Shown: positions 36,566-47,923, numbered from the stretch's first letter. The stretch is 64,000 bases of DNA from Candidatus Dormiibacterota bacterium (GCA_963751755.1 CAVVVH010000007.1:43556-107555); one strand, 5' to 3'. Made by a program: numbers and translations. Notes: generated by a model not told the origin, from the sequence alone.

Positions 36566-38762
36566 CTACTCCTCCGGCGCCAGCCAGACGACCCCGAGCG
36601 GCGGCACGGTCATCAGCGCCGACTGCTCGAACCCATGCCAGCTCGCCGGCTCGGTCTCCACCTTGCCGAGGTTGCCCTGCCCGCTGCCTCCGTAATCGCC
36701 GGCGTCGGTGTTGATCACCTCGCGCCACGCGCCCGCCTGCGGCAGACCGACGCGAAATCCGTGGTACACCGTGGCGGAGAAGTTGGCCACGCACGCCACG
36801 CCGGGATGTCCCGAGGCGTCGAAGCGCACGAAGCTCACCACGCTCTGATCGACGTTGCCGGCGTCGATCCAGCGGAATCCCTCGCTGCTGCCGTCCACCT
36901 CCCACAGCGCCGGCACCTCCTTGTACACACGGCACAGGTCGGCGACCAGCCGCTCCATGCCGGCGTGGTCGGGCTCCTCGAGGAGGTGCCAGTCCAGAGA
37001 GCGGTCGTGGTTCCACTCCGCCCACTGCGCGAACTCGCCGCCCATGAAGAGCAGCTTCTTGCCGGGGTGCGCCCACATCCAGCCGTACAGCGCGCGCAGG
37101 TTGGCGAAGCGCTGCCAGCGGTCGCCGGGCGTCTTGCCGATCAGCGACGCCTTGAGGTGCACCACCTCGTCGTGTGACAGCGGGAGGATGAAGTTCTCCG
37201 CCCACGCGTACCACACGCCGAAGGTCAGCTGCTGCTGGTGGTAGCGGCGGAAGATGGGATCCTTGCTGATGTAGTCGAGCGTGTCGTGCATCCAGCCCAT
37301 GTTCCACTTGAACGTGAAGCCGAGCCCGCCGCTCGCGGTCGGGCGCGACACCGCCGGCCACGCCGTCGAACTCCTCGGCAATGGTCATCACTCCGGGGTG
37401 GCGGCTGTGCACCTGCTCGTTGAACTGCTTGATGAACGCGATCGCCTCGAGGTTCTCGCGACCGCCGTACTGGTTGGGGATCCACTCGCCGGGCTTGCGC
37501 GAGTAGTCGAGGTACAGCATCGAGGCCACGGCGTCGACGCGCAGCCCGTCGATGTGGAACTCCTCGATCCAGTACAGCGCGTTGGCGACCAGGAAGTTGC
37601 GCACCTCGTTGCGGCCGAAGTTGAAGACCAGCGTGCCCCAGTCCGGCTGCGCGCCGCGGCGCGGGTCGGCGTGCTCGTACAGCGCGGTGCCGTCGAAGCG
37701 CGCCAGCGCCCACTCGTCGCGCGGGAAGTGCGCCGGCACCCAGTCGACGATGACGCCGATGCCGCGCTGGTGGAGGTGGTCGACGAACCAGCGCAGGTCG
37801 TCCGGCGACCCGTACCGCGAGGTGGGCGCGTAGTAGCTGCTCACCTGGTAGCCCCACGAGCCACCGAAGGGATGCTCCGCGATCGGCAGCAGCTCGACGT
37901 GGGTGAAGCCCATGCGCTCGCAGTGCTCGGCGAGCTGCGGCGCCAGGTCGCGGTAGGAGAGGAGGGAATCGTCGGCGCCGCGCCGCCACGACCCGAGGTG
38001 CACCTCGTAGATCGACAGCGGACGGATGGTCGGATCGACGACCGCGCGCCGCGACACCCATTCACCGTCATTCCAGGAGTACGCGAACTCGGTGACCACG
38101 CTGGCCGTCGCCGGGGGAGCTTCGGCCTCGCGCGCCAGTGGGTCTGCCTTGAGCACGGTGCGTCCGTCGGCACCGAGGACGCGGTACTTGTAGCGCATGC
38201 CCGCGCCCACGTTGGGGATGAAGATCTCCCACACACCGCTGGCGCCGAGCGAGCGCATGGGCAGTGTGCGCGTGTCCCATCCGTTGGCGTCGCTCACCAG
38301 CGCGACGCCGCGGGCGAGAGGCGCCCAGACCGCGAACGCCGTGCCGCGCACGCCCTGGTGGTCGATGACACGCGCGCCGAGCCGCTCCCACAGCCGGTAG
38401 TGCGTGCCCTCGCCGATGAGGTGCAGGTCGAGCTCACCGAGTGTCGGCAGGAATCGGTAGGGGTCGTCGACCTCCCACTCCGCGTCGGCGGTGCGGTAGC
38501 GCAGCCGGTAGCCGGGCAGGTGCGACACCGGCACCTCCGACTCGAAGAGGCCGCGATTGTCGACGCGCTTCATGCGCACCACGCCGCCGGGGTGAGCGAT
38601 GGCCACCTCGAGTGCGTCGGGGTGGAACGCCCGCACCACCGTGACGTCGCCGCTTCCGTGAGCGCCGAGCACCTCGTGGGGATCGCGTTGCACACCCTCG
38701 GCGAGCTTGGCCGCCGCCTCGGCCACGTCGATGCCTGTGCTGGTTCGCGACGTCGCGGTCAC
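36566..38762 (-). pseudogene. glgB: 1,4-alpha-glucan branching enzyme GlgB, one frame break
   Basis: The N-terminal 465 aa, including [43 protein letters not shown] and ...GVMTIAEE, are in the long ORF. The continuation [10 protein letters not shown]...[13 protein letters not shown]...[10 protein letters not shown] is in ORF 36566..37381. The junction is exact: GAG GAG T TCG (the extra base is one of the A residues at 37369-37370 on the plus strand). The total is 731 codons after correction. Confidence 0.9.
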
Positions 38763-40237
38763 TTCGTTGCCTCGAGGAGGAACCCGAGCGGTACCGGCAC
38801 CCACGAGGGGCGGTGGGCGAGCTCGTAACCCACCTCGTAGATCGCCTTCTGGATCTCGAACGCGCGACGCAGGGTCAGCGCCGCGCCGGGATCGGGCATG
38901 AGCACGGTGTCCGCGGTGCGCTCGACGTACGACGCCCAGAACGCCTCGCGATTGGCAGCGGCCCAGCTGAGGCCGTGCGCGCGCACGTGCTCCCACGCCT
39001 GGTCGGCAGGGGTGAGGCGCTCGAGAAGGGCCACCGACGCGGCGTAGTCGAAGCTGCGCAGCATGCCGGCGACATCGCGCAGCGGCGAGTGGCGGCGCCG
39101 GCGATGCTCGACGGGACGGCGCGGCTCCCCCTCGAAATCGAGCACCGTCCATCCGGAGTCCGTGCGGAGCACCTGGCCAAGGTGGTAGTCACCGTGGATG
39201 CGGATGGCCAGGCCCGGCTGGCGCAGCGCCCTGATGCTGTCGAGGCGCGTCTCCAGGGCGGCGCGGTGGTCGGGCAGCTCCTGGAGCGACTCGCCGCCGC
39301 GCGCGATGAGCGCGTCGAGCTCGGCGCGCACCTCGTCAGCCCACTGACCGAGGTCCTGCGGGGTGATCGGCTGGGGAGCGAGGTCCGGACCGGTTGCGGC
39401 GGCGAGCGCGAGGTGCATCTGGGCGGTGATGTCGCCCAGGCGCGCCGCCTCACCGGTGAAGCTGCCCCCGGCCTCCTCGACTGTCTGGGTGCGCTGGGCG
39501 GCGTCACCGGGCACGTGCTCCTCGGCGTCCGCGTACAGGTCGCGCAGCGACGTCAGCGCAAGCGTCCAGCCCTCGGTGCCGTTGTGGAGGAAGGGTTGCG
39601 CCATCGCCAGCAGCGCGCCGTGGGGCCGGTCCTCGCGTTCGTAGTGCAACCAGGCCAGCGCCGGTGCAACGTGGTCGAAGCCGGCCTCGGCGAGAGCCCT
39701 GGTCATCTCCAGCTCGACAGATGGCTCGAAGGTCAGCTTGCGCATCACCTTGAGCAGGTGCTCCCCGCCCACCACCAGCGACGTGTTCGACTGCTCGCGC
39801 GCCAGCGGGGCGATGTCCGGCGTCGACGCGTCGAGTCCTCCGCCGCCGGCCGACAGGCGCCCGTTGCGCAGCTGCACGGTCTGCCCGGCAGCAAGGATCC
39901 TCCACAGCGGTGCGGAGCTTCTCGCGTCGGCAAGGGCGTCGAAGATGAGGGTGTCGTCGTCCTCGTGGATGACTGCCGCGGGATCGCTCGGCCTCACGCC
40001 GCCGGGCTCGCTCAGCGCCACCGGAACGTTGTACGTGGCCTCGGTGGCGTCATCGTGCTCCACGGTGGCGATGCAGATGGCCACATCGGGCGCGCCGCCG
40101 GCGACGAGTGAGAGCTCGTCGCAGCGGACCGTGCGGATGGCCTGTCCGCCGCCGTACCAGCGCTGGCGCGGCAGCCACGACGCCAAAGCCTCCTCGAGGT
40201 TGGCGCGCATCGCGTCGACGTCGACGGTCCCGTTCAC
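38759..40237 (-). CDS. mak: Maltokinase (Mak/Pep2)
   Basis: [10 protein letters not shown]..., [17 protein letters not shown] and [15 protein letters not shown]...[10 protein letters not shown] are present. There are 4-nt overlaps with treS (upstream) and glgB (downstream). Confidence 0.9.
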
Positions 40238-46749: not shown

Positions 46750-46872
46750 CGGGCAGAGTGTTGTAGTTCTACAACAGATTGTCAAGCGAGCGCCACATCA
46801 CGATGCGCCCCGCGATCCCGCGCCCCGTGAGAGCGCCACGGCCAACGCACCGCCTCGTACTGTGAAACGGAC

Positions 46873-47923
46873 ATGTCGCGCTATCGATGGGCACTGACCG
46901 GGCTGGCCGGACTGGTTGTGGCCGCCGTCCTGGTCACCGGGCTGCTCCGACCAGCCCCGCCCAGCGCCGCCACCGGCAGCGGCAACGCGGCGCTCATCCC
47001 CACCGACCAGCGCATGGGAGCGCCCGAGTTCACCGGCCTCGACGGCTGGCTGAACAGCAAGCCCCTCACCGTGAACGGCCTGCGCGGCAAGGTTGTGCTC
47101 GTCGACTTCTGGACGTTCTCCTGCGTCAACTGCGTGCGCACCATCCCCCACCTGCAGCACCTCCAGCAGGCGTACGGCGGCCGCGGCCTGGTCATCGTCG
47201 GCGTCCACTCCCCGGAGTTCGACTTCGAGAAGCAGCGCGCCAACGTCGCCGCGGCGGTCCAGCGCTTCGGGGTCACCTGGCCGGTGGCCATCGACTTCGA
47301 GATGAACACGTGGAACGCGTACAGCAACCAATACTGGCCGGCCGAGTACCTCGTCGACCAGTCCGGCCGTGTCGCCTACATCCACGACGGTGAGGGCGAC
47401 TACGACGTCACCGAGTTCGGCCATTGCGGCGCTTCTCGGCATCAACGCGCACCCGACGCCGGTCGCAGCAACCCCCGACCTCAGCGCGCAGACTCCCGAG
47501 CTGTACGCGGGGAGCGAGCGTGGCCAACTCGGCAACGGCGAGCACCACGGGACCATCGGAACGTCGGTGAACTACGGCAGCCAGGACACCACCACCGACG
47601 CCGACCGCATCGTCCTCGGAGGCACGTGGGCCGACCAGGGCCAGTACATGGTGTCGCGGACCGCCGGCCACGTCCTGCTCAACTTCTCGGCGCGCGACGT
47701 GTACCTGGTCGCGGGACCGGACTCGCAGCCGGTGCACGTCACCGTCACCGTTGATGGCAACGTCGTGAGCGCGCAGCAGCGCGGCCCCGACCTCGGCGCT
47801 GACGGCCTGGCCGTCACCAGCCAGCAGCTGTACCACGTTCTCGCCAACCAGGGCGGCGGCCGCCGTCTCCTCGACATCGCGGTGCCGGCCGGGTTCCGGC
47901 TCTACACGTTCACGTTCGGCTGA
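46873..47923 (+). pseudogene. Thioredoxin-like (DipZ C-terminal-type) membrane-anchored protein, one frame break
   Basis: An N-terminal TM segment is followed by LRGKVVLVDFWTFSCVNCVRTIPHL (CxxC) and ...GVHSPEFDFEK...YWPAEYLVD.SGRV..IH.GEGDYDVTE in the first frame. (S)AIAALLGI...ELYAG...GTWADQGQYMVS...VYLVAG... is in ORF 47369..47923. The junction is GAG T TCG at 47413-47419. Confidence 0.8.

Follow-up and report, generated by a model that had tools for sequence, protein, structure and literature searches.

Why should one bacterial contig hold gene after gene interrupted by the same additional nucleotide? The question is raised by a 64,000-nucleotide (nt) stretch from a Candidatus Dormiibacterota bacterium (GCA_963751755.1, CAVVVH010000007.1:43556-107555; hereafter the window, the whole stretch analysed, with positions counted from its first letter), in which five genes change reading frame at the hexamer GAGTTC: glgB, treS, a thioredoxin-like gene, an ABC-transporter ATPase gene and a gene for an extracytoplasmic function (ECF) sigma factor. 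In the first three, the break can be placed exactly to the base, one extra T in each turning GAG-TCN into GAG-T-TCN. We conclude, with a confidence of roughly nine in ten, that the extra Ts are systematic, lineage-specific errors of the Nanopore consensus at GAGTC/GACTC, probably arising through DNA modification, and are not features of the organism. In the living organism, all five genes, and the glycogen/trehalose operon that includes glgB and treS, are almost certainly unbroken.

Frame breaks at GAGTTC in the window

Direct DNA alignment of the window (70% G+C) to the closest genomes proved too noisy for calling insertions and deletions (indels), with 81-85% identity over long matches and more than 100 gap openings in the longest; we therefore relied on a codon log-odds model trained on confident genes, combined with a Viterbi path permitting frame changes, and on a custom frameshift-aware aligner that places the proteins of relatives on DNA. 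Candidate breaks from the codon model were confirmed by reading the joined peptides and with the aligner, and calls at gene junctions were removed. The Viterbi frame changes discarded in this way, on peptide reading, included those at a VapBC pair (~1193), at the start of recJ (56762) and at the treS/pep2 and pep2/glgB overlaps.

In glgB, the coding strand reads ATT GCC GAG GAG T TCG ACG GCG TGG, with GAGTTC at 37368-37373 on the minus strand. The extra T, which appears as the plus-strand A at 37369/37370, separates the peptides TIAEE and STAWP and stands immediately 3' of the conserved glutamate of GH13 region III. The hexamer of treS lies at 40559-40564, also on the minus strand, within CGC AAC GAG T TCC TCC CTG, with QMRNE encoded before the extra T and SSLLHW after it. 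On the plus strand, the thioredoxin-like gene (~46873-47923), which encodes Redoxin and Thioredoxin_10 domains, reads GTC ACC GAG T TCG GCC ATT around the hexamer at 47413-47418, with the extra T between DYDVTE and SAIAALLG. Frameshift-aware alignment of intact proteins from short-read relatives puts a +1 event exactly at the junction codons of all three genes, in agreement with the positions given for them in the original prediction.

That prediction had also placed two further breaks on the same hexamer within a shared 13-mer, and both are present. The ABC-transporter ATPase gene has GAGTTC at 12485-12490 on the plus strand, within GGAGTTCGAACCT at 12484-12496, and the ECF sigma factor gene (domains Sigma70_r2, Sigma70_r4_2 and SnoaL_2) has it at 17240-17245 on the minus strand, within GGAGTTCGAACCT at 17234-17246. 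Two of the window's five error sites thus share an identical 13-mer, in genes that are unrelated and at codon phases that differ: the phase GAG-T-TCN, proposed as the common junction, applies to the three genes above and to the sigma factor, four of the five sites, but the ABC site is in phase AGT-T-CGA. The 13-mer resembles a tRNA T-arm; we rejected this identity, as ARAGORN detects zero tRNAs in the 64-kb window.

Removal of the additional base restores recognizable products. GlgB minus one T is 731 amino acids (aa) long, compared with 728-731 aa and the same four Pfam domains in its nearest homologues; the corrected ABC ATPase has a single complete ABC_tran match that spans the junction and covers profile positions 1-137 of 137; and the corrected sigma factor reaches 334 aa, the length most frequent in homologous proteins, with 92% identity to a Joint Genome Institute (JGI) protein over 100% of its length. 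Moreover, the frames downstream of the breaks remain open to the normal stop and are 86-100% identical to intact homologues, so that the relaxed constraint expected of pseudogenes is not seen.

Could these breaks have met the hexamer by accident? The window contains ~12 intragenic breaks, five at GAGTTC and ~7 elsewhere. GAGTTC itself occurs 30 times over both strands, or about once per 4.3 kb per strand, more often than the once per 7 kb first estimated. Widened by 6 nt in either direction, these sites make up 0.84% of the window, and the binomial probability that at least five of 12 breaks fall there is 3e-8. A chance coincidence of breaks with GAGTTC, already doubted on the first three junctions, is excluded.

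Recurrence among relatives and across sequencing technologies

A scan with the N-terminal part of TreS, using one genome per species, returned Candidatus Dormibacterota metagenome-assembled genomes (MAGs) as the closest relatives, among them a Microflora Danica MAG (L001; MFD01213, contig_1638), with a TreS 95% identical, and a short-read (megahit) MAG (L002), with a TreS 89% identical. The protein collection contained no short-read sequence of the same species (the best GlgB relative is 90% identical), and so recurrence across species and the contrast between technologies serve as evidence here. The technology behind each locus was assigned from contig naming and from the description of the Microflora Danica long-read MAGs, which were built from Nanopore reads only, assembled with Flye and polished with one round of Medaka 1.8.0 (PMC12313526).

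Homologous DNA was available for comparison at all of the five sites except that in the ABC ATPase gene. Around the glgB, treS and thioredoxin-like junctions, the conserved residues stay in frame in the relatives aligned. At the glgB site, close Dormibacterota relatives have an in-frame GAG GAG TCG/TCC, with L001 as the exception; at the treS site, L001, L002, L081 and L082 have AAC GAG/GAA TCC/TCG; at the thioredoxin-like site, L001 and L002 have ACG/ACC GAG TCG; and at the sigma factor site (17240-17245), the JGI locus L087 has GTG GAG TCG AAC CTC.

The exception at glgB is instructive. The same GAG-T-TCG-AC event occupies the same codon in the window and in three Flye-named contigs from two European Nucleotide Archive (ENA) assemblies: L001, L083 (ERZ25039475 contig_48012) and L084 (ERZ25039523 contig_33307), the latter two both reading GAG GAG T TCG AC; locus L086 shows that the contig of L001 belongs to assembly ERZ25039475. 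Synonymous flanks around the event differ among the window and these three contigs. Furthermore, glgB DNA is 87-93% identical among the window, L001, L081, L083 and L084, and its broken or intact state does not track relatedness: L084 and L001 are both broken, but L084 is more closely related to L081, which is intact. This combination of divergence and scattered break status argues for independent occurrences. The break is visible in deposited proteins as well: the GlgB cluster includes P0132, a fragment from an ENA assembly (...TIAEEFDRVAGG) with the same break, and P0146, a C-terminal fragment beginning just past it; L083 and L084 are the contigs from which these two proteins come.

The event is confined neither to these codons nor to one orientation. 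L084 has a second instance, GTC ACC GAG T TCG ACG, and two related loci have the hexamer in the opposite orientation, with a coding strand that reads GAACTC (L086, GA[A]C TCG; L003, GA[A]C TCC), where the correction restores D-S. Over all sequence examined, we count 11 events at 8 distinct sites, every one a change of GAGTC to GAGTTC.

Each GAGTTC or GAACTC in the sequence examined was then scored as positive when two strongly coding frames became continuous on removal of a single T. This was the case for 10 of 199 GAGTTC sites in Flye-type contigs and for 0 of 663 in Illumina- or JGI-type contigs (Fisher 3.6e-7), so that the event occurs in the long-read-only assemblies of relatives and not in the short-read ones. 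Intragenic frame changes of any kind, as called by the codon model, likewise come to ~22 per 100 kb in the window and ~12 in the 13 Flye-named loci, against a background of ~2.7 in the 68 Illumina-type loci.

Within a single pipeline, the event is also confined, with one exception, to the lineage. Close Flye-type Dormibacterota loci account for 9 restored frames out of 89 sites, and the other Flye-type loci for 1 out of 110 (in L003, an unclassified relative), a significant difference in a sample of modest size (Fisher P = 0.006). When L003 is set aside, none of the 22 codon-model calls in Flye-type loci outside the lineage is a GAGTTC event, compared with five of 12 in the window (P = 0.003). 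Three Microflora Danica long-read loci from other taxa (L035, L037 and L050) have the identical context GAGGAGTCGAC in intact form. In L023, a GAGTTC close to a break was judged coincidental, with the break ~15 nt downstream.

Origin of the extra T

Independence of strand and of codon phase indicates a process that acts on the DNA sequence record and not on translation. In this Dormibacterota lineage, GAGTC, a subset of GANTC with GACTC as its complement, would be written as GAGTTC (GAACTC) at a fraction of its occurrences, estimated at ~7% in the window and much higher at some sites. The error would persist through Flye assembly and one round of Medaka, splitting intact genes into two apparent reading frames. 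Its most likely cause would be a lineage-specific modification of the motif that base-caller and polisher models mishandle, one candidate being N6-methyladenine (m6A) laid down by methyltransferases of the HinfI/CcrM type or the PleI/MlyI type. PleI/MlyI recognize GAGTC/GACTC, which makes up the G+C-rich half of GANTC; on its GACTC strand, adenine methyltransferases of the GANTC type or the PleI/MlyI type would modify the adenine at position 2. The duplicated T is the partner of that very adenine. Base modification of GAGTC is probably the cause, a suggestion already made in the original prediction and one that fits both the lineage specificity and the published cases.

Indeed, T duplication at GAGTC is a specific form of a known general kind of assembly artefact. 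Lineage-specific pentanucleotide motifs are documented to give systematic Nanopore errors that survive Medaka, as for GCAGC and GCTGG in Listeria lineages (PMC10687267), and assembly errors have been reported at GATC, GANTC and other motifs, those associated with GANTC/CcrM affecting a subset of the motif's occurrences (PMC12392509). The window shares with these cases the recurrence at a short motif, the lineage specificity, the resistance to Medaka, the partial coverage of the motif, the absence from short reads and the ease of correction from homologues. It differs in the form of the error, a 1-nt T duplication opposite a putatively methylated adenine, where the published errors are mostly mismatches; the modification here is putative. 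A second known class, the Nanopore indels that reflect homopolymer length (Homopolish, PMC8011154), has in common with our events the single-base length errors, the spurious frameshifts and the split genes in long-read-only MAGs. However, the GAGTC events change T to TT outside any long homopolymer and are specific to a motif and a lineage; it is the ~7 off-motif breaks, located in G/C runs and GC-rich repeats of the window, that look like the homopolymer class. With the GANTC (CcrM/HinfI-type) and GAGTC (PleI/MlyI-type) methylation systems, finally, the events share the sequence affected and the position of the duplicated base opposite the target adenine; they differ in that no such methyltransferase gene was seen in the sequence examined and that GAGTC is not specially depleted.

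The last point bears on a line of support that we considered and dropped. GAGTC occurs 69 times in the window, as opposed to 193 in dinucleotide shuffles, 2.8-fold below expectation, which might be read as restriction avoidance and hence as evidence of restriction-modification. Density differs little between groups, at 1.08 copies per kb for the window, 1.24 for Illumina relatives and 1.18 for other high-GC genomes; observed/expected ratios are 0.76-0.91 in all groups, and the order-3 Markov ratio is ~0.8 in unrelated high-GC genomes as well. The shortfall against shuffles is a codon-usage effect, generic to high-GC coding DNA.

Several observations weigh against a modification-linked Nanopore error. 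Published modification-linked errors are mostly substitutions and not 1-nt insertions (PMC10687267). A search for methyltransferase-like open reading frames (ORFs) with the motif (D/N/S)PP(Y/F/W) found no genuine one in the window or the Dormibacterota loci, a search of ~0.2 Mb in all. All five events in the window have GAGTTC on the coding strand, with a probability of ~0.02 given the availability of sites. At the glgB site alone, the lineage contrast, 4 of 5 versus 0 of 3, is not significant (P = 0.14). The Nanopore origin of the window is one that we infer from its error pattern and its relatives. As to the coding-strand bias, we considered it as a sign of biology and rejected it: given the opposite orientation of the events in L086 and L003, it is most likely a matter of chance. 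Searches of the literature on Nanopore errors at GAGTC, and on Nanomotif results for GANTC or Dormibacterota, turned up nothing specific.

Among the other accounts, the one that fares best keeps the artefact and removes the modification, proposing that k-mers of the ...GAGTCGA... type lead the base-caller or Medaka to a wrong length for the T whether or not the DNA is modified. Besides the lack of a methyltransferase gene in the sequence examined and the substitutions that dominate published methylation-linked errors, this account can point to sequence context: 6 of the 8 distinct error sites are GAGTCGA, and hence contain TCGA, and the window has errors at 3 of its 17 GAGTCGA sites versus 2 of ~57 other GAGTC sites. 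Against it, other Microflora Danica MAGs from the same pipeline, with similar overall break rates, show the lineage contrast described above and are intact at the identical GAGGAGTCGAC context in three loci, and the window itself has 14 intact GAGTCGA sites, including GCGAGTCGAACCT at ~50594. We regard an intrinsic k-mer bias as a minority possibility, at something like one chance in five. The same figures would also accommodate a susceptible context, or a true modified motif, that may be longer than GAGTC. Somewhat more speculative is the idea that GAGTC/GACTC in this clade bears an unusual modification, either something other than ordinary m6A or one strongly dependent on its flanks, as in GAGTCGA, whose Nanopore signature would be a duplicated base in place of a miscalled one. 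Were this the case, the errors would amount to a first, indirect glimpse of that epigenetic system, but we hold this to be improbable.

Biological explanations fit far less well. Real frameshift mutations at a mutational hotspot, which would make the genes true pseudogenes, could account for an extra T in the deposited consensus of several assemblies, and a hotspot would be expected to strike the same site repeatedly. They would, however, require ~12 breaks in 64 kb to have struck housekeeping genes, among them glgB just past its catalytic glutamate, treS, glgE and aconitase; the open, conserved frames after the breaks, the 0 of 663 sites in Illumina/JGI-type contigs and a broken or intact status that does not follow phylogeny all oppose this, and we consider it very unlikely. 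Programmed recoding, in which a real T would be bypassed by +1 ribosomal frameshifting, quadruplet decoding or transcript editing, gains something from the shared GAG-T-TCN phase of four window sites and the sense orientation of all five, but is next to impossible to reconcile with the AGT-T-CGA phase of the ABC site, with two antisense events (GA[A]C TCN) in related loci, with short-read and JGI orthologues that have a plain in-frame GAG TCN in place of a conserved shift site, with a move from GAG to AGU that allows no slippery P-site pairing, and with a common codon, TTC, in the 0 frame, so that neither a hungry codon nor a stop is present to force a shift. The conserved open downstream frames, the correlation with technology and the independence of strand and phase together contradict both pseudogenes and recoding. 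The order originally proposed, with an artefact ahead of a hotspot and a hotspot ahead of recoding, is supported on these same grounds and by the recurrence of the event.

Other breaks and consequences for long-read genomes

With a Nanopore consensus error as the preferred explanation, the biology underlying the window is ordinary, and the value of the observation lies in the curation of Dormibacterota long-read MAGs and in a lead towards a modification. Nanopore-only MAGs of this lineage carry a predictable and correctable error, GAGTTC where homologues have GAGTC, which breaks up genes, raises the tally of pseudogenes and makes metabolism look less complete. Artefactual fragments (P0132, P0142 and P0146) already stand in public collections as separate proteins. 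Motif-aware or homology-aware polishing would repair these events, and the error pattern offers a cheap clue that an uncultured phylum probably has a GAGTC/GANTC modification system. The public protein set also includes an over-long fused ORF in L086 (6895-8457), a 520-aa 'sigma factor' whose relatives are 421 aa long.

The remaining breaks of the window lie away from the hexamer, most of them in G/C-rich contexts. Six of all the breaks, on and off the motif, fall in the glgE-treS-pep2-glgB operon (36566-44147, minus strand). Four of these are in glgE, on the minus strand at ~43291-43295, 43119-43122, 42731-42734 and 42577-42580, none at GAGTTC and all in G/C-rich contexts. They crowd into ~720 nt, with the breaks at ~43291 and ~43119 flanking a 174-nt stretch in the third frame, and the region 42577-43295 looks like one of locally poor consensus. 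Dense clusters of the kind are found in other Flye-type contigs: L084 has nine frameshifts in pep2 (7046-8505) and eight in glgE (3155-5422), and L081 has seven in treS (1293-3109). Most are single G/C insertions or deletions, a sign of very low-quality consensus in deposited assemblies.

A second ECF sigma factor, of the DUF6596 type, has a +1 break at 19873-19876 on the plus strand, away from the motif, where an extra base gives GTC GGCG CGC TGG in place of the GTC GAA/GAG CGC TGG of relatives. The gene for a large protein (>750 aa) without a Pfam match probably has a +1 break at 61530-61590 on the minus strand, called by the codon model only and with no GAGTTC nearby.

In acnA, a base is missing from GACTCCCCGAGTC (55849-55861, plus strand), with the gap at 55855/55856, between GACTC and GAGTC: a relative encodes E-S-A-E-S where the window reads GAC TCC CC GAG TCG. 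The GAG TCG at 55857, cited in the original prediction as an intact counter-example, is present, but it lies directly 3' of this other break. The acnA break may itself be related to the motif, with adjacent copies of GACTC and GAGTC, 3 nt apart, provoking a deletion. It is a single case, inseparable from contraction of a C run (GACTCC-CCGAGTC). Near the start of the window, at ~782-1430 on the minus strand, peptides alone identify the VapBC-like pair mentioned above, an AbrB/SpoVT-type antitoxin followed by a PIN-domain toxin.

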